A DNA stretch of 64,000 nucleotides from Candidatus Liptonbacteria bacterium (GCA_016204335.1 JACQKU010000008.1:10913-74912), one strand, 5' to 3'. Numbered from the stretch's first letter, positions 4,420 through 44,904 are shown. The notes: generated by a model from the sequence alone, not told the origin. Made by a program: numbers and translations.

Positions 4420-5832
4420 TTAGGAGGGGGATAGAAAATTCTTGTTGCGCCGGACGCGGTGGAAGCGGATGGCGAAGTTATGGGTTTCGGTAATCACGGT
4501 CGGAATGATTTTTTGGAGCTCGGGCGGCGCTTCGCCAAGTTCTTTCGGATTTTTTTCCAGGCCGTAGACGAGCCGTCCGGGTTTTCCCAAAGAAAGAACG
4601 CGGATTTTTTTCGCGGCTTCGAACTGCCCGACAATTTCTTTCGCGGCGTTGAATTGCGCGAGGCCGCCGTCAATAATCATCATGTCGGGATACGGCCACT
4701 CCGGATGGTTCAGCCGCCGCGCCAAAGTTTCTTTTATTGCCGCCGGGTCGTCCGATGGTTTCGCGCTTCTGATTATGAATTTCCGCCAGAATTCTTTTCG
4801 CGGCCGTAGCGCAGTTTCGTTTCCGCTCGCGGCGGAAAATTCCCACGCGGTCATTCCCGCGACTGTTTCTTTGCCGGAAAGATGGGATATGTCGTAGCCC
4901 TCTATCCGAATCGCGGACTCACGCTGACTTGACCCTTCGACACGGCTCCCGTTCGAGGGCCTGAGCGGCCCCTCAGGGCTAGTCGAAGGCAGGGCAGGCG
5001 CGGAATCACGCGGACTATTTTCTGCGTATGTCTGCGTATGGTCTGCGTCACTCAGCGTTTCCAGAAAGTCGCGGTGCGCGAGGATTTTTTCAAGCGCCTC
5101 TTGCTCTCCGGGTTTGAGATTTTTTGCGAATTTTTTTATGGGTTTTCCGATAAGGAAGTTCTTTACGATAATTATATTTTTTCGATATGCGGTTATCTGT
5201 TTTTGAGTCGATGAACTTCCTTTTCGACAACAAAATCCGCCGCAATTTCCGATTTGCGCGTTGAGGCACAGCCGGAGATGCGGTTTTGGACAGGTGCAAT
5301 AAGGGAAATTCCTCCGGAGCATCCGGAGAACCAGTTTCAAAGCGCGGCCTTCGGTGAAGGGGCCGATGGAATTGGCAAGCGGTAGATGGTAGGTGGTAGG
5401 TAGTAGGTTTTTGTGAGTGACAAAAATACGTGGGAATTTTTCTTCGCTAATCGCCGCATAGAAATAGCTTTTGTCGTCGCGCCAGAGGACGTTATACGGC
5501 GGATGAAGCGTTTTAATCAGTTTTGCTTCTTCAATGAGCGCCTCGATTTCTGAGCGGAGAGGAATAAGTTTTAGATGAGTGGCGTTTTCTCGGAGACGTT
5601 CGCTTTTGCCGTCTGCGCCCTTTAGGTAGGATTGCAGGCGGTTTTTCAGGTTGGACGCCTTGCCGATATAGAGAGGTTTTTTGCCAGGCAGTAGAAATGC
5701 GACTTTCTTTGAATTTTTCGCTCGCCGTTGGCGAGCAGTCGCATTTTCACTGCCTGGTCCATAAAAAATATAAACGCCGGGCGTTTTCGGCGCGGTTTTT
5801 ATTTTTTCGCTGATTTTCTTCCAAGAGTTCAC
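4420..5832 (-). CDS. uvrC: UvrC-like excinuclease (GIY-YIG N-terminal domain plus UvrC endonuclease domain), short C-terminus, carrying two in-frame insertions
   Basis: GVYIFYG...LYIGKASNLKNRLQSY (GIY-YIG), HPPYNVLWRDDKSYFY, and RIEGYDISHLSGKETVAGM (UvrC C-domain motif). Extra segments at 5684-5767 and about 4912-5052 interrupt conserved spacing. Confidence 0.7.
   Translation of the reverse strand: MNSWKKISEKIKTAPKTPGVYIFYGPGSENATARQRRAKNSKKVAFLLPGKKPLYIGKASNLKNRLQSYLKGADGKSERLRENATHLKLIPLRSEIEALIEEAKLIKTLHPPYNVLWRDDKSYFYAAISEEKFPRIFVTHKNLLPTTYHLPLANSIGPFTEGRALKLVLRMLRRNFPYCTCPKPHLRLCLNAQIGNCGGFCCRKGSSSTQKQITAYRKNIIIVKNFLIGKPIKKFAKNLKPGEQEALEKILAHRDFLETLSDADHTQTYAENSPRDSAPALPSTSPEGPLRPSNGSRVEGSSQRESAIRIEGYDISHLSGKETVAGMTAWEFSAASGNETALRPRKEFWRKFIIRSAKPSDDPAAIKETLARRLNHPEWPYPDMMIIDGGLAQFNAAKEIVGQFEAAKKIRVLSLGKPGRLVYGLEKNPKELGEAPPELQKIIPTVITETHNFAIRFHRVRRNKNFLSPS
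4912..5052. repeat. GC-rich in-frame insertion within uvrC containing three tandem TCTGCGTATG-like 10-mers and short inverted repeats
   Basis: The region encodes SDADHTQTYAENSPRDSAPALPSTSPEGPLRPSNGSRVEGSSQRESA between conserved UvrC blocks. Composition is clearly higher in GC than the flanks. Repeats tctgcgtatg / tctgcgtatgg / tctgcgtcact. Confidence 0.5.
5684..5767. repeat. Palindromic element family B copy 1 (TIR CCAGGCAGTAGAAATGCGAC...GTCGCATTTTCACTGCCTGG), 84 nt, in-frame inside uvrC GIY-YIG domain
   Basis: Near-perfect 20-nt terminal inverted repeats. Related copies at 26456-26560 and 44778-44904. Confidence 0.6.
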
Positions 5833-5885
5833 ACAGATGTTATAGGTCTTTCACAAATTTTTGTAAAACAGCATTTTTTAGCGAT

Positions 5886-5941
5886 CAAAAGTTCTTCTCT
5901 ACAATCCTTACGATCGTAAAATTTGTAGAGAAGAACTTTTG
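5886..5941. promoter_or_regulatory. 19-bp perfect inverted repeat (CAAAAGTTCTTCTCTACAA...TTGTAGAGAAGAACTTTTG) with loop containing palindrome TTACGATCGTAA, in the uvrC upstream region
   Basis: Read directly from sequence. A CTTACGATCGTAAG palindrome recurs at 20066-20079 upstream of the GDPD gene. Confidence 0.55.
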
Positions 5942-5961
5942 TGTATTGTAAAAACAGAAAG

Positions 5962-5997
5962 CCCCGCGTACGAGAAAGCCGGAGCTTCTGTAGCGGG
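5962..5997 (-). terminator. Putative rho-independent terminator (GCCCCGC...GCGGGGC stem followed by T-tract on minus strand) after the 75-aa ORF
   Basis: 7-bp GC stem with a T-rich run on the minus strand at 5940-5960. Confidence 0.4.
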
Positions 5998-6020
5998 GCA
6001 AACTCGCCCGCAGTCTTACT

Positions 6021-6248
6021 TTACGACTTTACGAGCCGTAGCTTGATGGTTGCCAGGCTCTTTCCGGGGAGATCGGCTTTTTCTCGAGCGAGTACTTCGA
6101 TTTTTGCCTGGCACTTCCGTCCATCGGTGCAGATGATGTCGATGATCTCGTCGATACCCTCACGAACAGGAAGGGTCGCGAACACAGTCGTTGCTCTTCC
6201 TTCCTGGATCCAGCCGAAGATCATTTGGGATACTTCCAAGGTCGCCAC
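6021..6248 (-). CDS. Hypothetical small protein (75 aa)
   Basis: ORF followed by a terminator-like hairpin. No family recognised. Sits in a locally GC-richer segment. Confidence 0.3.
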   Translation of the reverse strand: MATLEVSQMIFGWIQEGRATTVFATLPVREGIDEIIDIICTDGRKCQAKIEVLAREKADLPGKSLATIKLRLVKS

Positions 6249-6335
6249 GCGACATCCTCCTTGTGATTGGGGTCAGGCAGGGGCTTTGTACTATGACAAA
6301 TATACTACATCATCTCTGTTTTTTACAAGCAGACC

Positions 6336-6425
6336 TTATATCAACTTCCTTATCAAGCTCTTCCCGTTCATTTCTTTCGGCTGTGGAATTTCCATCAGTT
6401 CCAGAATCGTCGGGGCGATATTCAT
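6336..6425 (-). pseudogene. Duplicated 3'-terminal fragment of gpmI (about 30 codons: ...PMNIAPTILELMEIPQPKEMNGKSLIRKLI*)
   Basis: About 90% identical to the genuine gpmI 3' end at 7002-7091 (...IAPMILELMEIPQPKEMTGKSLLREFI*). Forms a direct repeat bracketing the TA pair. Confidence 0.7.
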
Positions 6426-6679
6426 TGGTAAATATCATGGTCGCCGACCGAATGGAAATGCGCGATATTTTTTTCGGAGAACTCGAAAATAATTCTATAT
6501 TTGAAACCGATTGAAAACGACCAAAAATCTTTCAGGCGGCCATGGAGTTTATGCGTATCAAGCGTCGGTTCAAAAGGATTTTTTCTGAAAATTCCTTCTC
6601 GTTTTTCCGCGAGAGGTTTGACGGCTTTCGGCAGTTTCTTGTATTCTCTCGCGAACTTCGAAGTATAAATTATGTCCAT
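6422..6679 (-). CDS. Type II toxin, RelE/ParE family
   Basis: 85 aa; KFAREYKKLPKAVK...NPF...LHGRLKDFWSFSIGFKYRIIFEF...IAHFHSVGDHDIYQ matches the RelE/ParE fold signature. Confidence 0.8.
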   Translation of the reverse strand: MDIIYTSKFAREYKKLPKAVKPLAEKREGIFRKNPFEPTLDTHKLHGRLKDFWSFSIGFKYRIIFEFSEKNIAHFHSVGDHDIYQ

Positions 6680-6690
6680 AGCGCGGTGAG

Positions 6691-6906
6691 TTATCTTAAA
6701 TCTTTAAGCGATTTCAGGATTTTCCCCTTTCCGCGGACGATTTCTTTCTGGCTTCCCCGCAATTCCTGAAGCGTTTGTTCTTCTTTCCAAAGCCTGAGAA
6801 GGTCTCGGAAAAATTCGCTCTTCGTAGCGTATTGCCCGGTCCCCACCGCTTTTTCAACTTCCCGCTTTAGCTCTGCCGGGAGAGAAATGTTGACTATGTT
6901 TCTCAT
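6691..6906 (-). CDS. Ribbon-helix-helix antitoxin (ParD/CopG-like)
   Basis: 71 aa; NISLPAELKREVEKAVGTGQYATKSEFFRDLLRLW is an RHH signature. Immediately upstream of the toxin. A TGTAA-N9-TTACA palindrome sits in its promoter region (about 6945-6965). Confidence 0.7.
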   Translation of the reverse strand: MRNIVNISLPAELKREVEKAVGTGQYATKSEFFRDLLRLWKEEQTLQELRGSQKEIVRGKGKILKSLKDLR

Positions 6907-7001
6907 TGGTTTTTATTCTGAATACAATATGACCTTTATTCTATTGTAACAAATTATATTACAGAGTCAATGGGCAGAGCAAGAGAGATGGAACTAAGAT
7001 T

Positions 7002-8534
7002 TTATATAAACTCTCTCAGCAAACTCTTCCCGGTCATTTCTTTCGGCTGTGGAATTTCCATCAGTTCCAGAATCATCGGGGCGATGTCGGAAAGCACGCC
7101 GGTGACTTCCATTGAAAGATTTTTCCAGTTCACGAATTTTCTGCCTTTGAATTCCGGAGCGACGAGATACACGGGCACCGGATTCGGGTCGTGCTGGGTT
7201 TCCATTCTGCCTGTTTCCGGATTGAGCATTTCTTCGACATTCCCGTGGTCGGAAGAAATAACAATAATGGTTTCAGAATTAAGGCCGGCTTTCAGTACCC
7301 TCCCGATTTCTTTATCAATAACTTTGATTGTTTCAACCGCGGCTTCGAAATTGCCGGTGTGGCCAATCGTGTCGGGATTCGCGTAGTTCGCCAGAATAAA
7401 ATCGAACGAACGGCTTTCAATGGCTTGCACGAGGCGGTCGGTGATTGCGGACGCCATCATTTCCGGATGTTCGTCCGGATGGGGAGCGGTAAGCGAGGGA
7501 ATGAAAACCCGATATTCGTTTTTGAACACGGATTCGCGGTAGCCGTTGAAAAAATAGGTGACATGGGCATATTTGTATGTTTCAGCGAGCCGTAGCTGCG
7601 TCTTTCCCGCGTCGCTCAAAATTTTGCCGAGCGGCTCTTCAACGGCTTCCGGCGGATACGCGACCGGCACGGAAAACTTTTCTTCGTAGCGCGTCATTGT
7701 CGCAATATAGAGATTTTGGAATGTTTTGACCGGAAATTTGCCGAATTTTTTTTCGATAAACGCTTCGGCGAGCTGGCGGATGGAATCCTCGCGGAAGTTG
7801 AAAAAAATGAGAGCGTCATTGTCTTTGACCGTTCCGTCCCGCCCAACGCGAAGCGGGGGAAGAAATTCCTCGCTTATGCCGCGCGCATAGTTGTCTTTAA
7901 TCTCGGCTTCAATGTCGCCGGTCATTGGTTGCCGGTCATCGGTCATGCACTCATACGCCCGCCGGGTGACCTGCCAGTTTTGCGTTCTGTCCATAGCGTA
8001 GTATCTGCCGGTCAGCGTGGAGAGTTTTTCAATCGGGATTTCTTTGAGGAATTTTTCGAGCGAGCGCGGCGGACTGTCTTTTCCGTCGGCGAAGAGATGC
8101 AGTTTTACGTTTTCTACATTTTGCTCTTCCGCCATTTGAAGAAGCGCCTGAAGATGTTCGATGGACGCGTGAACGTTCGCGTTGGTAAGGAGGCCGACGA
8201 GATTTACTCCGGAATTATTTTTCCTTGCGTGCAAAAAAGCGTCTTTCAGCGCTTTATTTTCAAAAAAGCTTTTGTCCTGGATTCCGAGCGTAATACGCGG
8301 GAAATACTGGTAAATGACTTTTCCGGCGCCGATGGTCAAATGGCCGACTTCGCTGTTGCCGGTTTCGCCCCACGGCAGGCCCACGCCGATTCCCGATGCC
8401 TGCAAACTGCCCGTCGGAAAGTTTTCTTCGAGCATCCGGAAGCTTTCCGGCTTGACGGCGTGAATCGGATTCGAGGCGTCGTTTCTGCCGATGCCCCATC
8501 CGTCGAGGATGATAAGTACTACGGTTCGTTTCAT
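7002..8534 (-). CDS. gpmI: 2,3-bisphosphoglycerate-independent phosphoglycerate mutase
   Basis: 510 aa; N-terminal VVLIILDGWGIG...NSEVGHLTIGAG and full-length iPGM architecture. Confidence 0.9.
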   Translation of the reverse strand: MKRTVVLIILDGWGIGRNDASNPIHAVKPESFRMLEENFPTGSLQASGIGVGLPWGETGNSEVGHLTIGAGKVIYQYFPRITLGIQDKSFFENKALKDAFLHARKNNSGVNLVGLLTNANVHASIEHLQALLQMAEEQNVENVKLHLFADGKDSPPRSLEKFLKEIPIEKLSTLTGRYYAMDRTQNWQVTRRAYECMTDDRQPMTGDIEAEIKDNYARGISEEFLPPLRVGRDGTVKDNDALIFFNFREDSIRQLAEAFIEKKFGKFPVKTFQNLYIATMTRYEEKFSVPVAYPPEAVEEPLGKILSDAGKTQLRLAETYKYAHVTYFFNGYRESVFKNEYRVFIPSLTAPHPDEHPEMMASAITDRLVQAIESRSFDFILANYANPDTIGHTGNFEAAVETIKVIDKEIGRVLKAGLNSETIIVISSDHGNVEEMLNPETGRMETQHDPNPVPVYLVAPEFKGRKFVNWKNLSMEVTGVLSDIAPMILELMEIPQPKEMTGKSLLREFI

Positions 8535-8921
8535 GAGAGTAATCGCGAACCATTCGACAGGCTCATGATGATTCGGCGAATGATGGTGAGCAAGGTCGAA
8601 CCATAACGCGAATCAAAGAGGTAATAATGCGAATCCGGTATTGTTACTATTTTTCTAATGGGATTCATTACCTTTATATTGTAAGCGATTTTACCCTGTG
8701 TTATCCAGATGTCCCTCTTGACCGAAGTATCCTCGTCTTGCTATCATACAATCATTAAAGAGTCACCAAACAATTTTTCCTAAAAAACTCAAGGAGTAAT
8801 CGCGAATATCACGAATAAAAAGAGATAATAATGCGAATAGTACGTATAGTATTCGCGTTATTACTCGAAGATTCGCGTTATTAGCGAATACTGATTATGA
8901 AGAATTTAGGGATACAACAGT

Positions 8922-10445
8922 ATGGAAATTTCCATTCCGGCAGTTATCGGAGGGTTGGTTTTGGGTTTGCTCGTCGGGTACTTCGCGCGGCAGTTCTTTG
9001 CGGCGCGGCAGGCAGAGTCGGTTGAACATAAAAGCAGGCGGAAAGTCGAAGACGCGGAAGCGCAGGCCAGAAAAGTCGTTTTAAGCGCGGAGGAAAAAGC
9101 CGCTTCGATTCTCGCCGAGTCAAAAGAAGAGAGGAAAAAGCGCGAAGAGGAAATTAGGCAATCGGAAAAACATCTTCTCCAGCGCGAGGAGATTCTCGAC
9201 AAGCGGCTTTCTTCCATCGGCGAGGAAGAACAGACAATTAAAAACAAGACCGAAACTCTTAAGGCGAAAGAAGCGGAAGTCGCGGAACTGAAAAATAAAA
9301 TTCAGAGCGAGTTCGAAAAAATAAGCGGCCTTTCGCGCGAAGAGGCGCGTCAGGAGTTGTTCCGCGAAGTCAAAGAAAACAACCATAAGGAACTTGCCGA
9401 ACTTCTTCAAAAGTTCGACAAGGAACGGCGCGACGAGATTGAAAAGAAGTCGCTCGATATTCTGACGGTCGCACTTCAGCGCTACGCGCGCTCGCACGTT
9501 TCCGAACTTACCACGACGGTTTTTCCGCTCGGCGACGAGGAATTGAAAGGAAAAATAATCGGACGCGAAGGCAGGAACATTCGCGCGCTCGAACGCGCGA
9601 CCGGCGTGGAATTCGTGATTGACGAAACGCCGGACAGCGTCGTCATTTCCTCATTCGACCCGTTCCGGAGAGAAATCGCCAGAATCGCGCTCGGGAAATT
9701 GATAAAAGACGGCAGGATTCAGCCGGCTAAAATCGAAGAAAAAGTCGAGGAGGCGAAAGAGGAACTGAACAAACGAGTGCTTGAAATCGGAGAAGAAGCG
9801 TCGGCGGAAGTGGGAATTTACGATTTGCCGAAAGAGATACTACAATTGCTGGGCCGGCTGAATTTCCGCACCAGTTTCGGCCAGAATGTTTTGACGCACT
9901 CCGTTGAAATGGCGCATCTCGCGAGCATGATTGCGGCTGACCTAGGTCTGAACGTTCAGGTTGCCAAAAAGGGAGCGCTTCTTCACGACATCGGCAAAGC
10001 AATCGACCACGAGGTCGAAGGAACGCATGTGGAGATAGGGATGAAGCTTCTCAAAAAATACGAGATTGACGAGAAGGTGATTCAGGCGATGCAGTCGCAC
10101 CACGAAGAATATCCGTACGCGACTTCTGAGGCGTATGTCGTGACGGCGGTTGACGCGCTTTCTGCGGCGCGGCCCGGCGCGCGGCGGGGAACCCTTGAAA
10201 ACTATATCAAGCGGCTTGGAGACCTTGAAAAAATAGCCGGCGAGTTCCCGGCGGTCAAAAATGCCTATGCCATCTCGGCGGGACGCGAGCTTCGTGTATT
10301 CGTCATTCCGGAAAAGATAGACGATTTCGGAGCGCTGGAGCTCGCGAGGCAGATTGCCAACCGCATCCAATCCGAGTTAAAATATCCGGGCGAGATTAAA
10401 GTAAATGTAATCCGTGAAATGCGGGCGGTGGAATACGCAAAGTAA
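8922..10445 (+). CDS. rny: Ribonuclease Y (N-terminal TM, coiled coil, KH and HD domains)
   Basis: 507 aa; TM anchor, KH region GREGRNIRALE, HD motif LLHDIGKAIDHEVEGTHVEIG. Confidence 0.9.
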   Translation: MEISIPAVIGGLVLGLLVGYFARQFFAARQAESVEHKSRRKVEDAEAQARKVVLSAEEKAASILAESKEERKKREEEIRQSEKHLLQREEILDKRLSSIGEEEQTIKNKTETLKAKEAEVAELKNKIQSEFEKISGLSREEARQELFREVKENNHKELAELLQKFDKERRDEIEKKSLDILTVALQRYARSHVSELTTTVFPLGDEELKGKIIGREGRNIRALERATGVEFVIDETPDSVVISSFDPFRREIARIALGKLIKDGRIQPAKIEEKVEEAKEELNKRVLEIGEEASAEVGIYDLPKEILQLLGRLNFRTSFGQNVLTHSVEMAHLASMIAADLGLNVQVAKKGALLHDIGKAIDHEVEGTHVEIGMKLLKKYEIDEKVIQAMQSHHEEYPYATSEAYVVTAVDALSAARPGARRGTLENYIKRLGDLEKIAGEFPAVKNAYAISAGRELRVFVIPEKIDDFGALELARQIANRIQSELKYPGEIKVNVIREMRAVEYAK

Positions 10446-10547
10446 TCGCGAATAATGCGAATATAGGCGAAATAATGCGAATAAGATGCATTATTTTCTG
10501 GACAAATTCGCATTATTTGCTAAAATTAGCATTATTAGCGAACACTC

Positions 10548-11960: not shown

Positions 11961-11967
11961 AGCTACA

Positions 11968-12603
11968 ATGATGAATCCAACAATCAAAAAGGCAATCGCA
12001 ATATCGGCAAGCATTTTCATTCTGTTGATTGGTTATTACGGCTCGTATCTGCCGATGAGAAAATCCATGATTTTTATCGGCGTCATACAGAATACGGGAG
12101 GGATAAAGACCCTTGCCGATTTTGAACAGGCATTTTCCGAACCTCTTGATTATCCGTCGCCCATCGGCCAGGAAGAATTGGTGCGAAACACCGCGAATAT
12201 GACGGTAGGCAGTATTCAAAATATTTCTCCGGAAGGCGTCGACCAAATGGTGAATTATATCGAGAGCTATTACGAACCGATCATCAGCCGCGGCCGTGGC
12301 ATGAGTTTCGGGCAGAATCTCTATCTTCTCGGGGCTATCAACGAACTCGCCTTTTTGAAGACGCAAAAAACGAAGTATATTGACGATGCGGAAAAATACT
12401 TTACAAAAGCCCTTGATTTGGGGCCGAAACGGCCGCAGGGCCTGTACGGACTTTTTGACGTCTATCGCGTAAAAGGCGATATTCCGAACGCAACGAAAGT
12501 CGGGGAACAGATTCTCGGCCAGTGGCCAACCGACACGAAGATAAAGGAAACGCTTGATGCCATGTCCGCCGGCGCTTCTTCGGGCGCTGAAAAGAAGCGG
12601 TAA
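11968..12603 (+). CDS. Membrane-anchored protein with TPR-like C-terminal region
   Basis: N-terminal TM (AIAISASIFILLIGYYGSY) and C-terminal AEKYFTKALDLGPKRPQGLYGLFDVYRVKGD repeat-like segment. The antisense 258-aa ORF is rejected. Confidence 0.4.
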   Translation: MMNPTIKKAIAISASIFILLIGYYGSYLPMRKSMIFIGVIQNTGGIKTLADFEQAFSEPLDYPSPIGQEELVRNTANMTVGSIQNISPEGVDQMVNYIESYYEPIISRGRGMSFGQNLYLLGAINELAFLKTQKTKYIDDAEKYFTKALDLGPKRPQGLYGLFDVYRVKGDIPNATKVGEQILGQWPTDTKIKETLDAMSAGASSGAEKKR

Positions 12604-12607
12604 ATTT

Positions 12608-13633: not shown

Positions 13634-13634
13634 T

Positions 13635-14567: not shown

Positions 14568-14584
14568 TACCGCGACTTCGCGGT

Positions 14585-19902: not shown

Positions 19903-20149
19903 GCACTCCTTTTCTTAATTCGCAGGATTCACTGCGTTATTCGTATTTTCAAGCGTTGATCCGGGCCAATCCCGAACCAGCGCGAAAGTTGTTGAACTTC
20001 CGATGCTACCGTAAGTAAAGCATAAAACTTACAAAAAAGTCAAGTTTTTTTGTTTACTATGATAACTTACGATCGTAAGATATAATAGTAGATACAAGCG
20101 TTGCAGTAGCTGCGGTAGCGGTTGATTTCTGGATATCCATCATGTCATA

Positions 20150-20926: not shown

Positions 20927-20950
20927 AATAGCTACGAAATACGAAACAAT

Positions 20951-20976
20951 ACGAATATACGAATTCGTATATTCGT
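20951..20976. promoter_or_regulatory. Perfect 26-bp AT-rich palindrome ACGAATATACGAATTCGTATATTCGT nested in a 67-nt imperfect palindrome (20930-20996) between the GDPD gene and the nucleotidyltransferase paralog
   Basis: Read directly. Outer arms are GCTACGAA / TTCGTAGC. Confidence 0.55.
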
Positions 20977-21004
20977 AAAAATTCGTAATTCGTAGCCCAG
21001 TATC

Positions 21005-24336: not shown

Positions 24337-24437
24337 GGCGAGAAAATATGAAAATATTTTCGAGACAAAACCAAGTATTCCATACTACGAAATATCTGCT
24401 TGCTATAACCTGTGAATTACGAAACTCCTCTGCAACC

Positions 24438-24537
24438 GTCATTGCGAGGACCGCGAGCGAAGCATGGCGGGACGAAGCAATCCAGTAAACGATATGTAAG
24501 AACTGGATTGCCGCGCCCCTTTGGGGCTCGCAATGAC
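24438..24537. repeat. Palindromic element family A copy 1 (TIR GTCATTGCGAG...CTCGCAATGAC), nested inside a longer IR GAATTACGAAAC / GTTTCGTAATTC (24411-24561)
   Basis: 11-nt perfect termini plus internal GCAATCCAG...CTGGATTGC palindrome. Confidence 0.6.
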
Positions 24538-24600
24538 GACAAAAAAGTGTTTCGTAATTCAAAGTATAAAGTCCAAGCAAAAGGCAACGGAAAATATTTA

Positions 24601-24618: not shown

Positions 24619-25559
24619 TCGATTTAAAAAATAAAAAAATACTCGTTGCGGGCGGCAGCGGATTTATGGGTTCTCATGTGGTAGCCGCGCTGAAGTCGCG
24701 CGGAGTTTCGGATGAAAAGATCGTTGCGCCAAATTCGGCGGAGTGCGATTTGCGGGTTTTCGCGGATTGCCAAAAAGCCGTCAAGGGAATAGACGTGGTA
24801 TTCGACTGCGCGGCAGTGCCGGGAGACATCCTGATGCGGGAGAAAATTCCCGGCCAGCTCTTTTATGAAAATCTTTTAATGGGAATCCAGCTTCTTGAGG
24901 CGGCGCGGCAGGAAGGAGTCGGGAAAGCCGTGGTGATCGGAAGCGCTACGGAATACCCGGCGGATGCGCCGACACCGTTGAACGAAGAATCTCTTTGGAA
25001 CGGACTTCCGTCGTCGGGCAATATTCCATACGGCATGTCGAAACGCATCGTGGGAATTCAAGGGGCGATGTACCGCCGCGAGTCCGGATTCAACGCCATT
25101 CATCTCCTTCTCACGAATTCCTACGGGCCGGGCGAGAAATTCGAGAGCGGTTATATGGTTCCCTCGCTCATACAAAAAATCATGAATGCGAAAGCGCGCG
25201 GAGAACAAGAAATCGAAGTATGGGGAACCGGACAGGCGCTCCGCGATCTCATGTACGTCGAAGATGCGGCGGAAGGAATCGTCCGCGCCGCGGAACGGTA
25301 TGACGATGCGGCGCCGCTCAACATCGGCTCCGGCGCCGGAATTTCGGTGAAAGATTTGGTAATGCTCCTCTCGAAACTTATCGGATTCGAAGGAACGATT
25401 CGCTGGGATACGACAAAACCGGAAGGCGACTTGAAGCGGCTCTTGGATGTAAGCCGCGCCGAACGCACGATCGGATTCAAAACGAAAACTCCGCTCGAGG
25501 AAGGGCTGAAAAAAACGATTGAGTGGCATAGGGAACAATCTTCCGTTACCCAAGTATAA
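24615..25559 (+). CDS. Fcl-family NAD(P)-dependent GDP-6-deoxy-4-keto-hexose epimerase/reductase (paralog 2)
   Basis: [59 protein letters not shown]. Confidence 0.75.
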   Translation: MLDLKNKKILVAGGSGFMGSHVVAALKSRGVSDEKIVAPNSAECDLRVFADCQKAVKGIDVVFDCAAVPGDILMREKIPGQLFYENLLMGIQLLEAARQEGVGKAVVIGSATEYPADAPTPLNEESLWNGLPSSGNIPYGMSKRIVGIQGAMYRRESGFNAIHLLLTNSYGPGEKFESGYMVPSLIQKIMNAKARGEQEIEVWGTGQALRDLMYVEDAAEGIVRAAERYDDAAPLNIGSGAGISVKDLVMLLSKLIGFEGTIRWDTTKPEGDLKRLLDVSRAERTIGFKTKTPLEEGLKKTIEWHREQSSVTQV

Positions 25560-26427
25560 ACCGATGGTGGAATCTCTTGAACCTACAAACGAACCGTTCA
25601 ACCCGGATGAGCTGTATAGAAAAGCGCTCGCGGATCACACCGACTACGGAAATTTGCCCGAGAGCGAAATTAAGGCCTTGATTACCGAAATTGCACAGGA
25701 GATAAAGCAACTCGAAGAGGTTGGCGAAAAAGAAAAAGCGAGAATTGAGATGCCCGCGGAAACGGCGAAGAAAATCGGCGCGATCTGGGTGAACTCCGGA
25801 GTGGGAACCTACGATACGCCTCTTAAAGAAAAAGAGCGGGGTGTGTATAAAAATCTTCCCTGGATTCAGTGGGCAGACCGGCAACGGTTGAATCACGCGG
25901 CGATTCTTGCGCGGAAAGTGGCGGAAGCAAGAAGCGGAGAAAATTTTGACAGGGGCTCTCTTGCGAGCATCAAAGAGCGGAAAGCAAAAATCAAAGAGAT
26001 GATTGGGAGGTACGGCCCCAAAATCATCTATAACGGCACGGAACTTGAAGACGATACCGTTGCTGACGTGCTTTCGCGGGAAGGAACTATTATTCCGGAA
26101 GATGATGTAATTATCATACGAGGTTCTGTCGAACGTCCAATTATCAACACGCTTGATACCGTAAAAACGCTCAAACTGCCTCCCGAGTTCAGAGATGACC
26201 AGGAGCTCGCAATTGTCGCTCATGCTCCCCATCTTGCGCGAATCATGCGTATGCTCAACAAACAACCGCCGTTCCCGAGAACCACAAAGGTAAGATTGTT
26301 TCCCGTGCCTACGCCCGAAGCAGGGAAAAAAGAATACGCCGAGCTCGAAATACTCGGAATTCTGAATTATGTATTGCGGCGAGGAGTCGCGGAGAAGGAG
26401 TCGTATCCTTATGTCATGAACGAGTAA
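25519..26427 (+). CDS. Hypothetical protein (possibly DUF218/YdcF-like C-terminal region)
   Basis: ORF with an ELAIVAHAPHLARIMRML segment reminiscent of DUF218. The start may be the downstream Met at 25564. Confidence 0.35.
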   Translation: MSGIGNNLPLPKYKPMVESLEPTNEPFNPDELYRKALADHTDYGNLPESEIKALITEIAQEIKQLEEVGEKEKARIEMPAETAKKIGAIWVNSGVGTYDTPLKEKERGVYKNLPWIQWADRQRLNHAAILARKVAEARSGENFDRGSLASIKERKAKIKEMIGRYGPKIIYNGTELEDDTVADVLSREGTIIPEDDVIIIRGSVERPIINTLDTVKTLKLPPEFRDDQELAIVAHAPHLARIMRMLNKQPPFPRTTKVRLFPVPTPEAGKKEYAELEILGILNYVLRRGVAEKESYPYVMNE

Positions 26428-26455
26428 TTTTTTTCCCAAGCTTTATCCGGTTAGC

Positions 26456-26560
26456 CAGGTAGTGAAAATTCGACTTGCAGGGTAGCGAAGCCAAGCTCTA
26501 CCACCCTGCTTGTCGCCAACTGCGGCAGATAAGTCTTTCAGTCGAATTTCTACTACCTGG
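26456..26560. repeat. Palindromic element family B copy 3 (CCAGGTAGTGAAAATTCGAC...GTCGAATTTCTACTACCTGG)
   Basis: 20-nt near-perfect inverted termini. Intergenic. Followed by a partial motif-C-like palindrome at about 26636-26690. Confidence 0.5.
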
Positions 26561-37142: not shown

Positions 37143-37156
37143 TTTCTTGTTATTTT

Positions 37157-38245: not shown

Positions 38246-38260
38246 GATAGAATGAGATGA

Positions 38261-38384
38261 ATCCCGTTAGAAACAACAGCTCCATGATTTTTACTACAAT
38301 GTTTCATATTTCAAACAAAAAAGTCGATTCAACTAAAATCGTTGATGTACGGTCGCCCGGGGCGGCCCGCTTCTAATGGGATGA
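38261..38384. repeat. Motif C module 1: ATCCCGTTAGAAACA - 92-nt spacer - TCTAATGGGATG (ATG = GT4 start)
   Basis: 15-nt terminus after the GT10 stop. A degenerate inverted copy supplies the GT4 start codon. Confidence 0.5.
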
Positions 38385-39607: not shown

Positions 39608-39614
39608 CGTTTTC

Positions 39615-39629
39615 TGTTTCTAACGGGAT
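39615..39629. repeat. Motif C copy TGTTTCTAACGGGAT followed by ATG (start of NUDIX gene 39628)
   Basis: Perfect reverse complement of 38261-38275. It lies 7 nt after the GT4 stop. Confidence 0.6.
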
Positions 39630-40092
39630 GAAAAAGTATTCTGTCGTCCGAAAAAGAATTCCCGAAAAGATTTATAAGGAAATCCACCGTTCATTGCCGA
39701 TAGTTTGCACGGACCTCGTCGTAACCGATGGAAAGCGGTTTTTTCTGGTAAGACGGAAAAATAAACCCGAAGCCGGCCGGTGGTGGTTTCCGGGCGGCAG
39801 AATTTTTAAAAATGAACTGTTAAAAAATGCGGCGCTAAGATTTTTAAAGCGCGAAACCGGGCTCAAAGGAAGTAAGCCAAGCCTATTGGGATTTTACGAG
39901 TACTTTGCGACGCCGGGGTATTTCCCCCGGATAAGTTCACATACCGTCATTTTTGTATTTAAAATAAAAGCTTCTTCAAATTTAAAATTCCGCCTGGATA
40001 GACAAAGCTCGGCCGCCAAATGGTTTTCAAGAATTAATCCGGCGTGGCATCCATACATCAAAACCTTTTTAAGGAAAGCTGGTTTAGAGTAA
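39628..40092 (+). CDS. NUDIX hydrolase, GDP-mannose mannosyl hydrolase (Gmm/NudD)-like
   Basis: RWWFPGGRIFKNELLKNAALRFLKRETGL parallels the Gmm variant Nudix box ([29 protein letters not shown]). Confidence 0.6.
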   Translation: MKKYSVVRKRIPEKIYKEIHRSLPIVCTDLVVTDGKRFFLVRRKNKPEAGRWWFPGGRIFKNELLKNAALRFLKRETGLKGSKPSLLGFYEYFATPGYFPRISSHTVIFVFKIKASSNLKFRLDRQSSAAKWFSRINPAWHPYIKTFLRKAGLE

Positions 40093-40138
40093 TGACATTA
40101 TGAAAATTCTCAGCTTGGCGCAATAAGATTTATATTCA

Positions 40139-40642
40139 ATGACAACGCTCGTCTTCAAAAGATTTTTTTGTAAAATCGCGTATCCGCTTGCCGCCTGGAT
40201 TCTTTGGCGGGTTAGGCCGGATGCCTCGGCCTCTGCCTGCGCGATCGCGACAAACGGGAAATTGCTTTTAATTCAGCGTTCGTACGGGCCAGGCATGTGG
40301 GATCTTCCCGGAGGGAGAATCGGCAATAAGGAAACACCGGAAGAAACCGTGCGGCGTGAAGTTGAGGAGGAAGTTGGCGTCACTCTTGGGACGGTAAAAC
40401 TGTTCGGTGAGCATTTTTTTCTTCGCGATGATGGCATTAAGCGCGGCGTGGTGCATTGTTTTTACATTGAAGTGCCGAACGAGAATTTTATCCTAAAAAG
40501 CGGGGAAATCGCCGCGGCGAAATGGGTTGCCTTAGATAGCATTCCCGAATTTCATACTCAGTCGGTTGACACCACGCTCAGATTTTTGGACCCTCAAAGG
40601 CCCTGCCCGCCGTCAATTTCCAAGCACATCACGATTTTTTGA
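40139..40642 (+). CDS. NUDIX hydrolase (canonical Nudix box)
   Basis: GGRIGNKETPEETVRREVEEEVGV = GX5EX7REVXEEXGV. Confidence 0.7.
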   Translation: MTTLVFKRFFCKIAYPLAAWILWRVRPDASASACAIATNGKLLLIQRSYGPGMWDLPGGRIGNKETPEETVRREVEEEVGVTLGTVKLFGEHFFLRDDGIKRGVVHCFYIEVPNENFILKSGEIAAAKWVALDSIPEFHTQSVDTTLRFLDPQRPCPPSISKHITIF

Positions 40643-40675
40643 AACGGCTATCCTTAATGGCTATATAAGTCGGCG

Positions 40676-41737
40676 CTAAATATAATTTAACTCGTTAAGG
40701 CGTTCAATGACGCCAGTCGAATTGTTTTTTTGTTGTATAGCGAGGACGACCTCGGCTTCCGACACAATTTTTCTTAACGTACCCAAAATTTTTACCGGGT
40801 TTTTGCCCACTGCGGTTTCCGAAGAAAGAATCAGGCCATTCACGCCGTCGAGTACAAGGTTGATTATATCGTTGACTTCGCCTCTTGTAGGTTTGTCTTT
40901 GTGGAGCATGTTTTCAAGGAGGTGAGTAGCCACGAAAATAGGTTTCCTTTCTTTAACGCACTGTTTAGTGATGAGTTTCTGAACAAACGGTATTTTTTCG
41001 TAACCGATTTCCGTTCCGAGATCGTTTCTGTCGATAAGAATAGTGTCGCTTGCCGCGATTAGAGAATCAAGATTGTTAATTGCCCGGCGCGTTTCGATTT
41101 TCGAGGAAATCAGGATATTTTTTTTGCCGATAAATCGCCGTACTTCCTCCACATCTTTCGCGGCGCTGACGTACGACAGGGAAATCTCGGAGATTCCGTA
41201 TGGGAGAGCTTTTTTTATTACCAAACGGTCTGCGTCGGTAAGCATCGTTTTCGGTTCAATCTTTTTTTCGAGTCGGATGTTTTTTGGCACGCTCATTTCG
41301 CCTCCGCGCACTATCACGCACTCCAGCCGCGGGGACGGATCTTTTTTTCGCCCCAATACTTTTAGCACGATCCGGTTGTCGTCTATGGATATTTTTTCGC
41401 CTCTCGGGATGGCGGCGATGAATTCGGGGCGCGTGATCCATAAGGATTTTGATTGCATCGAAGAACCAAACGGTATTATTGAGATATGTTCGCGGCGTTT
41501 CAATATCGCCGTTTTTCCGAAAGGAGCCATCATTCTTGTTTCTTTTCCCTGGGTGTCAATGATGATGGGAATTTTCTTCGAGAGCGCGCGAATGTCCTCG
41601 ATAAGCTTTATCGCGCGTTCAGGGGGGGTGTGGCTAAGATTGATGCGAAGCGCATCGGTTTTTTTCCTTATGAGACCGGAAAGGGTTTTTGCGGAATCGG
41701 ACTTCGGTCCTATTGTGCAAATAATTTTTGTTTTCAT
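40676..41737 (-). CDS. Pyruvate kinase-like protein (barrel and cap domains only; lacks the usual C-terminal domain)
   Basis: MKTKIICTIGPKS...RINLSHT, ISKIETRRA, DRNDLGTEI, VATHLLENM...PTRGEVNDI follow the PK barrel. 353 aa versus about 470 for typical PK. Confidence 0.6.
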   Translation of the reverse strand: MKTKIICTIGPKSDSAKTLSGLIRKKTDALRINLSHTPPERAIKLIEDIRALSKKIPIIIDTQGKETRMMAPFGKTAILKRREHISIIPFGSSMQSKSLWITRPEFIAAIPRGEKISIDDNRIVLKVLGRKKDPSPRLECVIVRGGEMSVPKNIRLEKKIEPKTMLTDADRLVIKKALPYGISEISLSYVSAAKDVEEVRRFIGKKNILISSKIETRRAINNLDSLIAASDTILIDRNDLGTEIGYEKIPFVQKLITKQCVKERKPIFVATHLLENMLHKDKPTRGEVNDIINLVLDGVNGLILSSETAVGKNPVKILGTLRKIVSEAEVVLAIQQKNNSTGVIERLNELNYI

Positions 41738-41752
41738 GGTTATAATTATGCG

Positions 41753-43144
41753 CTATATCAATGGTTTTCCGGAGAGTTTTTTATACTCTTTTATCCCGAG
41801 CGCCTTGAGAATTGTAGGGGCGATTTGAACGGTTTCGACCTGCCCGAGGTTTCCTAAGGGGCCGCCTTCTTTTTTTAATATAATGACGCCTTCGGGAGCA
41901 TGCCCGGCATCGTCGGTCCCGACAGTAGTTCCTTCGGAATACAGCCCTTTATTCCCGATATCGTTATTGGTTCCGTAGCGAAGGTTGTCGAAATACACTA
42001 CTGCGTCAGGGGCTTTATCGCCTTTTTTCCTGTAAATTTTTGAAGTATCGTATACCTTTGTATTCAATTTTTCGCCTTTTACGCCTCTAATTAGCGGAAG
42101 TTCTTTACTAATCCGTCTCAAAATTTTCACCCTGTTTTTTTTGTCGTAAATATAAACATTTGCCTGATATCCTTCAGTGGCTATGACACTCGTTTTATCC
42201 CAGTCTATGGTTTCGTAGTCGAGTCGTTTCGGGCCGTTTGCGTAAAAATCCGCAAATTCTTTTTTTACGGCCAAAAAACCTTTTTCCCGCAGCCAGTCAT
42301 TTAAATTTATCCGGCGAATCATGTGGTCCATTCCATGGTCGGACACCACCATCACCGTTGTTCCGGAATCCATTTTTGAATGTTTCATAAATTTTCCGAA
42401 CTCCCCATCCACGTATTTATAGAAATCCAATACCGCGTTTTTGTAGGGTGAATTTTTGACGTAGCGTTCATGAGTGGGGTCAATATGCGCCCAGAACATA
42501 TGGTGAAGTCGGTCTGTGCCGATAGTCACAAAATCAAAAAGGTCCCAATCCATTTTTTCAAAAAGATAGCGGGCAATTTTGAAATGCTGTTTGGTCATTT
42601 TATAACTTTGCGAGATGAGAAAATCCAAATTCATTTTCTTATATCCCAGAAATCCGGCCACATCAAACATGTAATCTTTGCCGAAAAGAAGTTCTTGGAT
42701 TTTCTTCTTGAAAGAAACCGGATAGACGCTCTTATCGTCAAAGCTTGGAGTCAAAAAATCGGTTACCATTACCCCGTTAATTTTTTTTGCGGGATAGGTG
42801 AGAGGGATATTGAGCGCAATTGTCTTCTTTCCTTTTCTGCTCAGCATATCCCAAAGCAGAGGAGTTTTTATATCGGTAGATGTAACGAGCGAAGGAGTGC
42901 GGTAATGGCGTCCTTGTTTTGCCATATAACTTTGAATACCGGTTTCTCCGGGGTCCCTGCCGCTGTTGATAGAAGTCCAGGCGACGGTTGAAGTCGGCGG
43001 AACGGTGGAGTTCAAGATTCCGTAAGAACCTTCTTCGATAAGACAGGAAAAGTTGGGCAATTGGTTTCTATAACGCCCGAATACCAGTTTAGGGACAAAT
43101 CCATCTATGCCGAAAAGAAATACTTTTTGCTTTTTGGGTTTCAT
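41753..43144 (-). CDS. Alkaline-phosphatase-superfamily type I phosphodiesterase / nucleotide pyrophosphatase (PF01663-like)
   Basis: FLFGIDGFVP...STVPPTSTVAWTSINSGRDPGETG (metal-binding T/S nucleophile region) and MVVSDHGMD. Confidence 0.65.
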   Translation of the reverse strand: MKPKKQKVFLFGIDGFVPKLVFGRYRNQLPNFSCLIEEGSYGILNSTVPPTSTVAWTSINSGRDPGETGIQSYMAKQGRHYRTPSLVTSTDIKTPLLWDMLSRKGKKTIALNIPLTYPAKKINGVMVTDFLTPSFDDKSVYPVSFKKKIQELLFGKDYMFDVAGFLGYKKMNLDFLISQSYKMTKQHFKIARYLFEKMDWDLFDFVTIGTDRLHHMFWAHIDPTHERYVKNSPYKNAVLDFYKYVDGEFGKFMKHSKMDSGTTVMVVSDHGMDHMIRRINLNDWLREKGFLAVKKEFADFYANGPKRLDYETIDWDKTSVIATEGYQANVYIYDKKNRVKILRRISKELPLIRGVKGEKLNTKVYDTSKIYRKKGDKAPDAVVYFDNLRYGTNNDIGNKGLYSEGTTVGTDDAGHAPEGVIILKKEGGPLGNLGQVETVQIAPTILKALGIKEYKKLSGKPLI

Positions 43145-43149
43145 CGCAG

Positions 43150-44289
43150 TTATACGAATAATTTTTTTTCTTTAAGCAGTATCCTTGATATCTCGCGTCT
43201 TAGCATTTCCGCGGGAGGGGCTTTACCAATCGTAAGCATGTTCCGTATGAGCGTACCAGAGGAGTGCACGCGATACTTTTCTCCGTGCGGGCAGGCGTCC
43301 TCGAATGCGGTAGTCTTGCAACGCGTGCAGTAAAAGGCTTTTCCAAAATGGAAAATTTTTATGCCCATTGCGCGGTTATATTTTCCAATCATAAAGGCGT
43401 AATTTTGAAGCGTGTAAAAGTTTCCGACGCCCGTGTGGTCGCGCCCGACGATAAAATGCGTACAGCCGAAATTTTTGCGGATAACGGCGGTTAAAAGAGC
43501 CTCGCGCGGCCCCGCGTAGTAGGCATTGTAGGGAAGAAAGCTCAAGACGGCTTTCCCGCGCGGAAGAATGTGCGCCACAAAATAACGATAAGCTTTTGCC
43601 ACGACCTCATTCCGGAAATCGCCTTTCTTTTTAGAACCGATTAACGGATGCACAAGAATGCCGTCGGTTTTTTTAAGACCTTCCTTCTGGATGTGTTCAT
43701 GCCCAAGATGAGGCACATTCCTGGTATGAAACGCGACAATCTGTTTCCAATGCTTTTTTTGAAAAAGAGTTCTTGTTTCGCGCGGAGTCAGATACGGAAG
43801 TAATGTTCGAAGCGGTTTTCCGATCCAGGTAATATCTCCGCCGATAAGATACGGTTTTGCGCGTTTAAGTTTCGCCACGCCGGGATGCGCGACATCTGTC
43901 GTGCCGAATACTTTTTTTGCGAAAAGCGTTTTGGGAAAAGGATATATTTCTGAAATTTCGAGAAGCCCTATGATTTTTCCGGAAAAGTTCTTAAGAAATA
44001 TCTCCTTTTCTTTGAAAATTTTTTTTCGTTCGTCGGCATCAATATCAAGGATAATCGGGATAGGCCAGAAGACGTTGTTTTTCAGAGACAAATGATTGAG
44101 CACAGACAGGAAATCTTTTTTATTCAAGAATCCACTAAGGGGACTGTATGCTCCCGTTGCGATATTCCACAGTTCAACGATTTTTTCGTGAGCTATCGGA
44201 AGCGACCGAAGTTTTTGCGCCAAAAGCCGTCTCTTTTCTTTTGGAGACGCGATACGATTAATCAGCTTGTTGCCCAGAGGTTTATTCAT
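43150..44289 (-). CDS. sat: Sulfate adenylyltransferase (ATP sulfurylase)
   Basis: AFHTRNVPHLGHEHI (QTRNxxHRAHE-type motif) and IVGRDHTGVG (GRDHAG motif). Confidence 0.85.
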   Translation of the reverse strand: MNKPLGNKLINRIASPKEKRRLLAQKLRSLPIAHEKIVELWNIATGAYSPLSGFLNKKDFLSVLNHLSLKNNVFWPIPIILDIDADERKKIFKEKEIFLKNFSGKIIGLLEISEIYPFPKTLFAKKVFGTTDVAHPGVAKLKRAKPYLIGGDITWIGKPLRTLLPYLTPRETRTLFQKKHWKQIVAFHTRNVPHLGHEHIQKEGLKKTDGILVHPLIGSKKKGDFRNEVVAKAYRYFVAHILPRGKAVLSFLPYNAYYAGPREALLTAVIRKNFGCTHFIVGRDHTGVGNFYTLQNYAFMIGKYNRAMGIKIFHFGKAFYCTRCKTTAFEDACPHGEKYRVHSSGTLIRNMLTIGKAPPAEMLRREISRILLKEKKLFV

Positions 44290-44292
44290 GGA

Positions 44293-44511
44293 TTAAAGAT
44301 ATCCGAGTTTTTTCAGATGCTCGCGGATTTGCGTTTCTTCAGCAAAGAGCGGCTTATCGGTTTTTTCCAAAAGAAGTTCGCGCAAAATAAAGGCGACAAA
44401 AGCGGATACAGACACAAAGCCCGTGCCGTCGATTGTTTTTTCTATCCGGGCGTGAAGCGAACGGGGGATTGAGACAGTCGTGTAATCATTCCGTTTCTTT
44501 TTGATAGCCAT
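44293..44511 (-). CDS. Ribbon-helix-helix (CopG/NikR-like) DNA-binding protein
   Basis: TVSIPRSLHARIEKTI...GFVSVSAFVAFILRELL is an RHH signature. First gene of the sat operon. Confidence 0.6.
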   Translation of the reverse strand: MAIKKKRNDYTTVSIPRSLHARIEKTIDGTGFVSVSAFVAFILRELLLEKTDKPLFAEETQIREHLKKLGYL

Positions 44512-44777
44512 AGTGTAATTATGGGTAATTACAATTTGGTGTCAAGGGGTGGCTGTGGATAAACGTATTGGGTTAACAAAATGCCGATATAAGGCCTGTT
44601 TTATTGCTTATCCAGCCGGATTTTGCTAATATACGGCAATGATAAAGAAAAAATCTTCAAAAAAGCGGGTGCCAGAAAAAGAAGCGGGGAACGCCGACAT
44701 AGAAAAGCGGAAGGAGGGGGAGCGGAAAAAAGTTATGGAACAGTTGCGCGCGCTGGGATATATTTAGGGAACCAATG

Positions 44778-44904
44778 CCAGGCAGTAGAACTGCGACATT
44801 GGCAGTTCGTAATTTCAATGATTCATATCGCGAGAAAGGTCTTTTTTACTTTAGAAACTTGTAACAAGTCAGCCGCAGGCTGAAGTCGCAGTTTCACTGC
44901 CTGG
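44778..44904. repeat. Palindromic element family B copy 2 (CCAGGCAGTAGAACTGCGAC...GTCGCAGTTTCACTGCCTGG)
   Basis: Ends 2 nt before the ATG of the sulfatase-like gene. Confidence 0.5.

Follow-up and report, generated by a model that had tools for sequence, protein, structure and literature searches.

This study concerns a family of short palindromic elements with CCAGG...CCTGG termini, three copies of which lie in a stretch of 64,000 nucleotides (GCA_016204335.1 JACQKU010000008.1:10913-74912; hereafter, the window) from a Candidatus Liptonbacteria metagenome-assembled genome (MAG), whose UvrC and sulfatase were 100% identical to NCBI proteins of that name. A preliminary description had proposed three related copies with shared inverted termini of about 20 nt, and had read them as non-autonomous elements resembling MITEs (miniature inverted-repeat transposable elements) or, alternatively, repetitive extragenic palindromic (REP) sequences. 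All three were present in the 64-kb window, spaced by ~20 kb, and a degenerate arm pattern (CCAGGYAGTRRAANTKCGAC) matched six times, once per arm and with 0 mismatches; 0.15 matches were expected by chance, and the maximum among 100 dinucleotide-preserving shuffles was two. The coordinates first given for copy 3 were retained, whereas copy 1 ended at 5757 (not 5767) and copy 2 started at 26455 (not 26456); the length range kept its upper limit of 127 nt, and its lower limit was 74 nt instead of 84 nt. The elements and their surroundings are as follows (AG and GA denote the two types of terminal arm; TSD, target-site duplication; ORF, open reading frame):

4420-5832, minus strand: uvrC, GIY-YIG nuclease family protein of 470 aa (P0001, 100% identical), host of copy 1
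5684-5757, plus strand (AG arm first): copy 1, short-form MITE of 74 nt inside uvrC, in-frame translation PGSENATARQRRAKNSKKVAFLLPG
5684-5703, plus strand: AG-type terminal arm of copy 1, CCAGGCAGTAGAAATGCGAC (arm pattern match)
5720-5736, no strand: inner G+C-rich hairpin of copy 1, GCTCGCC-GTT-GGCGAGC, beside the GA-type arm (folding, orthologue alignment)
5738-5757, minus strand: GA-type terminal arm of copy 1, CCAGGCAGTGAAAATGCGAC on the minus strand (arm pattern match)
26451-26454, plus strand: left TSD of copy 2, TTAG
26455-26560, minus strand (AG arm first): copy 2, medium MITE of 106 nt, intergenic
26561-26564, plus strand: right TSD of copy 2, TTAG
44774-44777, plus strand: upstream target duplicate of copy 3, AATG; its ATG (44775-44777) opens a 29-codon ORF
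44778-44904, plus strand (AG arm first): copy 3, medium MITE of 127 nt, same direction as the sulfatase gene
44905-44908, plus strand: downstream target duplicate of copy 3, TATG; its ATG is the sulfatase start codon
44906-46300, plus strand: sulfatase gene (P0241, 464 aa, same start), host of copy 3

The termini of all three copies were 20-nt imperfect inverted arms, which differed at positions 10-11: AG in one arm and GA in the other, read on the opposite strand (AGT-AG-AAA and AGT-GA-AAA). Every element therefore has an orientation, and the strand with the AG arm first was plus for copies 1 and 3 and minus for copy 2. On either strand, each copy was predicted to fold into an extended hairpin (-42 to -55 kcal/mol, with z-scores between -5.2 and -9.8), consisting of an outer stem of 9 bp, a fixed A·C/G·T irregularity caused by the AG/GA difference, and an inner stem of ~10 bp. 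Their lengths (74, 106, and 127 nt for copies 1, 2, and 3, respectively) were in the size range of MITEs (below ~600 bp), and they contained no ORF of their own beyond read-through. At the gathering threshold of Rfam 15, only a tRNA (1644-1727) was matched in the whole window and none of the elements, and a scan for promoter and terminator consensus sequences around copies 2 and 3 found none.

Copy 1 was located within uvrC, as previously proposed: the minus-strand ORF read through the element in frame, giving the protein context GVYIFYG-[PGSENATARQRRAKNSKKVAFLLPG]-KKPLYIGKA, with the insert in the hairpin that separates GVY from YIGKA, the two signature motifs of the GIY-YIG domain. In a protein alignment of 60 homologues, only P0001-P0003 carried the insert; P0005 had a decayed remnant, and the rest were without it. 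Comparison with empty alleles at the DNA level (contigs L124 and L274) revealed a sharp left boundary, exactly at CCAGG, and the replacement of 6 nt by 78 nt (74 + 4), a net gain of 24 codons (72 nt). The filled allele P0002 had the empty allele P0006 as its nearest relative, and vice versa (distance of 0.12, versus 0.28-0.33 to the others of a six-protein clade), and their uvrC flanks were almost identical; therefore, the element was gained or lost recently as a discrete unit, either by transposition/excision or by allele exchange. The three filled orthologues shared 63-68% protein identity (BLASTP), and their identity at third codon positions reached 0.92-1.00 in the arms (13 codons), against 0.42-0.75 in the element interior and 0.53-0.60 over the remainder of uvrC. 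A double compensatory change was found in the inner stem (GCGAC/GTCGC to GCGGA/TCCGC), and the inner G+C-rich hairpin kept its place and structure, but not its sequence, in the orthologues of L121 and L123. Copy 1 is best read as an old in-frame insertion that added ~24 residues and is now a surface loop of UvrC.

Other inserts were also found in UvrC. At a second site, following LKAGDF, homologues P0018, P0019, P0023, P0025, and P0026 contained a different in-frame insert (NPAPFDIYSRKSIPIKNKERVSQSKRCGV...; ~13-35 residues), and P0057, P0058, and P0028 had other inserts at the hairpin used by copy 1; in-frame uvrC insertions seem to be recurrent in this group of the candidate phyla radiation (CPR). 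Upstream, the spacing between iPGM and uvrC was 45 nt in the related Liptonbacteria contig L121 (9956-10000) versus ~1.17 kb in the window (5833-7001). The additional DNA contained two small minus-strand ORFs (6422-6679 and 6691-6906), by eye similar to a RelE/ParE-type toxin and an RHH antitoxin, and may be an inserted toxin-antitoxin module.

Copy 2 was intergenic, between convergent ORFs on the plus (25519-26427) and minus (26795-27523) strands. It is best read as an atypical, rarer intergenic insertion, with TTAG duplicated over 4 bp at its flanks. Copy 3 abutted the sulfatase gene, as first described, ending 1 nt before the ATG at 44906, and was flanked by aATG upstream and tATG downstream. 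The orthologous contig L263 (P0242, 72% identical) provided an empty site, with a single TATG and no element: ...agcaTATGccctc / ...ggggtatatttagaaagcaTATGccctcacgg... in L263 and ...gggatatatttagggaaccaATG[127 nt]TATGccttcacag... in the window. The 29-codon ORF opened by the upstream ATG copy ran into the element and stopped at 44862-44864, and a short remnant similar to the C-terminal coding region of the nuclease described below (ACAAGTCA...) seems, by eye, to be retained. Copy 3 is best read as a typical start-codon insertion, which now separates the sulfatase gene from its former start context by the 29-codon ORF and a hairpin of ~-47 kcal/mol. Two small divergent ORFs upstream of this gene (44293-44511, minus; 44639-44767, plus) had similar peptide ends (...EHLKKLGYL and ...EQLRALGYI); the 42-aa ORF was conserved in L263, its stop being 7-10 nt before the sulfatase start.

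Distribution, anatomy, and start-codon bias of the family

The termini were not confined to the window. A genome scan, with one genome per species, gave at least 119 loci, and a metagenome scan, for which the query was an exact 20-mer of the commonest arm, yielded 120 loci, of which 111 contained a partner arm. Genome contigs thus contributed at least 32 paired copies beyond those of the window, and metagenome contigs 107 after the removal of redundancy. Nearly all of the paired genomic elements came from MAGs with the labels of Patescibacteria or Parcubacteria groups (Yanofsky-, Portnoy-, Gottesman-, Terry-, Lipton-, Harrisonbacteria, and 'Saccharibacteria'), apart from a few generic or probably wrong labels. 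Among the matches listed, the family comprised more than 130 copies from Patescibacteria MAGs and metagenomes and none from elsewhere; 84 single-arm loci from many other phyla had no partner arm within 5 kb, and are regarded as chance matches, which serve as a control. Similarly, 17 loci in viral contigs were single arms only, of varied GC content and without a partner, and were read as chance. Another 13 arms without a partner were attributable to contig ends or to decayed or interrupted arms. As far as sampled, the family is confined to Patescibacteria/CPR.

The family consensus of the arms, CCAGGTAGT-AG/GA-AA-nnn-CGAC, represented 20-bp imperfect terminal inverted repeats (TIRs). The AG/GA asymmetry was kept in 35 of 35 window and genome copies and in 104 of 107 metagenome copies (139/142 in total). 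Arm positions 13-17 occurred in seven variants across the family, with ATT, ATG, ACT, ATC, TTT, and CTG among the forms of positions 14-16, and the two arms of one element matched in 34 of 35 cases; this constraint fits either one protein recognising both ends or arm pairing in a hairpin or cruciform intermediate. Element interiors were not conserved among copies. Lengths clustered in three classes (near 70, 130, and 310 nt), with 18 copies of 66-83 nt, ~78 copies of about 111-156 nt, and 13 loci of 307-363 nt. A single copy of 207 nt was a nested composite, a short element inside a medium one (L182, 723-929). No larger element was found, whether as arms 0.4-6 kb apart or as solo arms with long flanks: no pair was more than 363 bp apart in ~150 copies. 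Amplification within one genome was also observed, with at least seven similar copies in sampled blocks of Parcubacteria GW2011_GWB1_40_14.

Perfect 4-bp direct repeats flanked 95 of 137 non-redundant copies, mostly CATA/TATG (one duplex, read on two strands), in addition to TTAG/TTAG of copy 2 and aATG/tATG of copy 3. By its defining features, the family is one of MITEs, and the non-autonomous, MITE-like reading of the preliminary description was thus supported by further copies, target-site duplications, and empty sites. Nested and tandem copies were also seen. At L158/L170 (3463-3825), the nuclease ORF of a long copy contained a 31-nt 'arms only' element, which occupied the GIY/YIG hairpin position that copy 1 has in UvrC; two copies were adjacent at L216 (~9672-9774), and three extra arm-like repeats stood beside the element at L048 (1-291).

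The insertion sites were strongly biased toward start codons. Among the 137 copies, 113 (82%) abutted an ORF whose ATG lay in the duplication and which read away from the element. A minimum of 40 codons was required for such an ORF (15 if cut by a contig end); lengths in the genome set were 51-744 codons, many being several hundred. As a null model, elements were removed from the same loci, TATG/CATA sites were counted, and insertion was taken to be random, with the loss of all intragenic insertions. The 4545 sites comprised 283 at start codons, 1187 intergenic non-start, and 3075 intragenic, so that a start-codon share of 19% (283/1470 non-intragenic sites) was predicted, compared with the 82% observed (binomial p ~3e-57). 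The duplications of most non-start copies were different (CAAA, CACA, CTTA, TTGA, CTAA...); therefore, TATG is not an absolute requirement.

The upstream regions of the target genes were A/T-rich and G-poor, had no Shine-Dalgarno signal, and contained T at position -1 in 73% of cases. Control genes from the same loci were similarly A/T-rich upstream (Shine-Dalgarno-like 4-mers, 15%; T at -1, 46%). Because of this resemblance, the preferred site is regarded as the generic translation-start context of genomes without Shine-Dalgarno sequences. Approximately 28% of the targets were operon-internal, another ORF terminating no more than 30 nt upstream; both cases that were fully read (the sulfatase gene and L264) were of this kind. 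A preference for leaderless genes with a -10 box just upstream was considered, and was weakened by these operon-internal targets and by the same upstream regions in control genes. In-frame read-through of MITEs into N-terminal host fusions was rejected: only 2 of ~90 copies were in frame and open, and stops occurred 24-157 nt before the host ATG.

The coding form and its GIY-YIG nuclease

The longest class of elements, from different metagenomes, carried an ORF: 13 loci, two of them identical, gave 12 non-redundant copies (307-363 bp). Each was made up of the arms and one ORF (81-101 codons), which in these 12 diverged copies started 6-8 nt (usually 7 nt) from one arm and ended 5-20 nt before the other. 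The GA arm, which had not been fixed by the search, showed 0 mismatches in every long copy. The ORF encoded a GIY-YIG nuclease domain (Pfam PF01541; E = 4.7e-16), with YVY, YIGYT, R, H/N, and E conserved in the 12 copies; GIY-YIG nucleases are not recognised transposases. The nearest solved structures were UPF0213 proteins: 1zg2 (BH0048; E = 9e-6) and 1ywl (EF2693; E = 3e-3). In a survey of the superfamily from 2006, the protein corresponds to the minimal prokaryotic Slx1-like group (PMC1564403). The median proportion of synonymous differences in ten intact copies was 0.81 (saturated), and that of nonsynonymous differences was 0.16, far lower; the nuclease is therefore under purifying selection. 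No HUH gene was found between the arms in ~150 copies, no whole-genome search for a REP-associated tyrosine transposase (RAYT) having been made.

The arrangement of the ORF relative to the host gene was also regular. The two had the same direction in all ten start-associated long copies, including L232/L264 with the AG/GA marker flipped. In 9 of the 12 long copies, an open frame extended from the arm's first base into the ORF: ATG-CCA-GGT-AGT-GAA-AAT-TCG-ACn-nnn-ATT-ATG, translated as M-PGSENSTAI-MF... For six of nine start-associated long copies, reading from the upstream copy of the ATG took in the whole nuclease and stopped 22-34 nt before the host ATG. Only ~27 nt preceded the ATG of the nuclease, and no promoter or ribosome-binding site of its own was evident by eye. 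Because the ORF is co-oriented, in frame, and without evident signals of its own, the nuclease is probably expressed from host initiation signals. Moreover, the translated arm, MPGSxN, formed the start of 59 of the 120 closest database homologues, which had been called by various pipelines and not selected for arms. The annotated starts of nuclease entries P0125-P0240 varied: approximately half were at the flanking host ATG (MPGSEN...), and some were inside the arm (MKIRLAI...).

At E <= 1e-3, the wider protein family comprised 6866 cluster representatives. An MPGSEN prefix was clear in only one of 150 representatives drawn from 50%-identity clusters, and a few others had similar prefixes (e.g., MPSSESS); the TIR-bearing mobile clade is therefore one branch of this family. 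A connection with the shorter elements was found in L034, a copy of 125 nt from another Liptonbacteria MAG, in which an in-frame deletion had left the first three and last ~21 codons of the ORF (MFH joined to TNQGSRLLKRMLKEYFY). Judged by its sequence, L034 is a direct link between the coding and non-coding forms. It was the sole clear deletion derivative in a search of the MITEs with the ORF-start motif, and L151 gave a weaker match. Since most MITE interiors have no detectable similarity to the long form, we do not claim a visible derivation of all MITEs from it.

Proposed mechanism, alternatives, and relation to known systems

We consider it probable that the three window copies are non-autonomous members of a family of miniature, nuclease-driven transposons that borrow host start signals. 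In the proposed mechanism, the nuclease would recognise the arms and make cuts staggered by 4 nt, as the duplications suggest, at gene starts that are nearly always (T)ATG, and host repair or ligation would complete the insertion, duplicating the ATG. Landing on a start codon would supply the element with transcription and an initiation codon, from which the co-oriented, in-frame nuclease ORF could be expressed. The second ATG would spare the host gene: host ORFs were intact after insertion, genes in these genomes are generally without Shine-Dalgarno sequences, and the host protein may be made by re-initiation or independent initiation. Short forms would have lost the ORF and be mobilised in trans by the nuclease.

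Several points weigh against this proposal. The putative role of the GIY-YIG protein in movement is inferred from co-occurrence, and the chemistry is the weak point: characterised GIY-YIG enzymes are hydrolytic and leave 1-2-nt 3' overhangs or single nicks, unlike the 4-nt staggers postulated here, and we know of no strand transfer catalysed by them. The counts of in-frame copies are not independent, since the arm sequence and 7-nt spacer are inherited, and the internal Met of the nuclease is conserved in all copies. A profile of the long-form interior (nhmmer) gave no matches to MITE interiors. The uvrC insertion has no clean duplication, with a net gain of 72 nt instead of 78 nt. In the window, tblastn with the nuclease found only a weak match, to the GIY-YIG domain of uvrC itself. 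Finally, a preference for a longer sequence that coincides with the generic start context could account for part of the start-codon bias.

Some of these points bear on the strongest alternative, which we regard as unlikely: that the elements are ordinary MITEs of a classical insertion sequence (IS) family, for instance one with a DDE transposase encoded elsewhere, the GIY-YIG ORF being a passenger or a nested homing-endonuclease gene. TIRs with a 4-bp TSD are a hallmark of DDE transposition, and relatives of IS5, IS701, IS1380, and IS3 produce duplications of 3-5 bp; the lack of known strand transfer by GIY-YIG enzymes and the many MITE interiors unrelated to the long form point in the same direction. 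MITE:IS ratios can be very high, and a parent could be missed in ~150 copies, but no arm pair was more than 363 bp apart at any locus. A passenger would also not be expected to fill the entire inter-arm space in 12 diverged copies under purifying selection, or to have an arm-encoded N-terminus in half of the closest homologues, found independently of the arms, and the 10/10 co-orientation with host genes is unexplained by a random passenger.

Homing offers a further explanation, which we consider improbable. The nuclease would cut empty alleles and the element would be copied by recombinational repair, with ectopic events and with short forms as decaying relics. GIY-YIG is a classic homing-endonuclease fold (PMC1564403), and P0002 and P0006 differ only by the element and ~6 adjacent nt, which resembles a short co-conversion tract or precise allele replacement. 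However, more than 100 different host genes are occupied, 4-bp flanking repeats and conserved inverted termini are foreign to homing, the ~90-aa protein has no DNA-binding extension such as NUMOD, and MITE subfamilies were amplified within one genome, as in GW2011_GWB1_40_14. Least probable of all, and in our opinion very unlikely, is that the elements are structured sequences of benefit to the host (a regulatory hairpin for translation or transcription, an mRNA stabiliser, or a REP-like site) with incidental mobility: the hairpins are very stable, the start-codon position would suit translation control, and the uvrC arms are conserved at synonymous sites with an inner hairpin kept by compensatory change, and the two arms covary, but such covariation is also expected if one protein binds both ends, there was no Rfam match, no conservation of interiors, and no promoter or terminator consensus at copies 2 and 3, presence/absence polymorphism was found between close alleles and orthologues, and a nuclease-coding form exists.

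Nuclease-driven transposition into start codons, which we prefer, differs from the known systems in several respects. Bacterial MITEs such as Correia/NEMIS of Neisseria, RUP of Streptococcus pneumoniae, and Nezha of cyanobacteria are likewise non-coding elements of 70-155 bp with TIRs, a short TSD, and many copies, and Correia-type MITEs also form hairpins when co-transcribed with neighbouring genes. The described MITEs are, to our knowledge, derivatives of DDE insertion sequences; Correia elements produce a TA duplication, and an IS-like parent is presumed for them. Here, the sole coding relative was a 310-bp GIY-YIG element, and 82% of the copies were on start codons. Rickettsia palindromic elements (RPEs) are palindromic repeats of ~100-150 bp that can reside in frame inside genes for proteins and lengthen the product by a peptide segment, like copy 1 in UvrC. 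We know of no associated enzyme, defined TSD, or start-codon bias for RPEs; they belong to a different phylum and presumably differ in sequence, and only one of the three window copies was intragenic.

Free-standing GIY-YIG homing genes (phage T4 seg/mob and the I-TevI family) are similar in that a selfish nuclease gene lies between or beside host genes and uses host expression signals. Their proteins have DNA-binding extensions, home into cognate alleles, and are without inverted termini or TSDs (PMC1564403), in contrast to the bare ~90-aa catalytic domain, 20-bp inverted repeats, 4-bp duplications, and more than 100 unrelated loci found here. UPF0213 or stand-alone Slx1-like proteins (BH0048, 1zg2; EF2693, 1ywl; the E. 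coli YhbQ group) are minimal single-domain proteins and the closest solved relatives of the nuclease; no description of them as parts of TIR-flanked mobile elements was found in the literature. Nor was any system found in the full-text literature that unites TIRs and a TSD with start-codon targeting and a bare GIY-YIG nuclease.

REP/REPIN-RAYT systems and the palindrome-associated transposable elements (PATEs) of IS200/IS605 also have short GTAG-containing, hairpin-forming palindromes, mobilised in trans by one small nuclease-type protein. Unlike the elements in this study, REPINs and PATEs lie outside genes, lack a TSD, and rely on an HUH Y1 transposase. The REP-like alternative of the preliminary description was thus rejected, because 4-bp TSDs are the rule, most copies (82%) abut start codons, one copy is intragenic, and the associated protein, the only one found between the arms in ~150 copies, is GIY-YIG and not RAYT; the IS200/IS605 PATE reading was rejected on the same defining features (TSDs, start-codon positions, and the GIY-YIG protein). 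Integron attC sites are similar in being imperfect palindromes (57-141 nt) whose centre varies and whose arms have a conserved asymmetry that marks one strand. An attC identity was rejected on the CCAGG...CCTGG termini, the absence of RYYYAAC/GTTRRRY cores and of a cassette array or integrase, and the dispersed, TSD-flanked copies.

Other repeats were present in the window. A set of perfect or near-perfect palindromes centred on TTACGA/TCGTAA (5886-5941, 20048-20097, 20931-20996, and 24403-24571) seems to be unrelated to the CCAGG elements; that at 5886-5941, just upstream of uvrC, had 28-nt arms without a spacer, and that at 20931-20996 had 33-nt arms built from repeated ATACGAA. An inverted repeat with perfectly matching arms of 17 nt (CCCCCACACCAATGCCG at 1623-1639, its complement at 1724-1740) bracketed and overlapped a tRNA-Leu(CAG) gene (1643-1727, minus strand).

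The start-codon bias and the coding form are new beyond the earlier reading of this DNA, as are the fixed AG/GA difference between the arms and the arm conservation in the old uvrC insertion. We tentatively propose a new class of transposon as a serious possibility: elements of ~310 bp that use a bare 90-residue GIY-YIG nuclease as a transposase and capture start codons with duplication of the ATG, and whose MITE derivatives occur as in-frame protein segments (UvrC) and perhaps as some CPR rRNA insertions. Insertions with GIY-YIG ORFs, 'not similar to either intron', have been described in CPR rRNA genes, scattered over sites of low conservation, as have numerous short insertions without an ORF (PMC11270868), and some of these may be the same elements.

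If the link with the nuclease holds, the GIY-YIG mechanism would join DDE, DEDD, HUH, serine, tyrosine, and Cas1 for the movement of prokaryotic DNA, and the lower size limit of an autonomous mobile element would be a new one; the smallest autonomous insertion sequence known to us is IS200 (~700 bp), and an element of ~310 bp is less than half that size. On the same condition, a parasite without a promoter or ribosome-binding site would cope by landing on host start codons, and a 90-residue nuclease with a 20-bp recognition arm and 4-bp target would be of biotechnological interest. In Patescibacteria MAGs, many genes have a 5' end disrupted by such an element, with spurious N-terminal extensions and small 'MPGSEN...' ORFs in annotations as a result, and conserved proteins such as UvrC receive in-frame insertions from them. 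They also offer a testable explanation for some of the short non-intron insertions in CPR genes.

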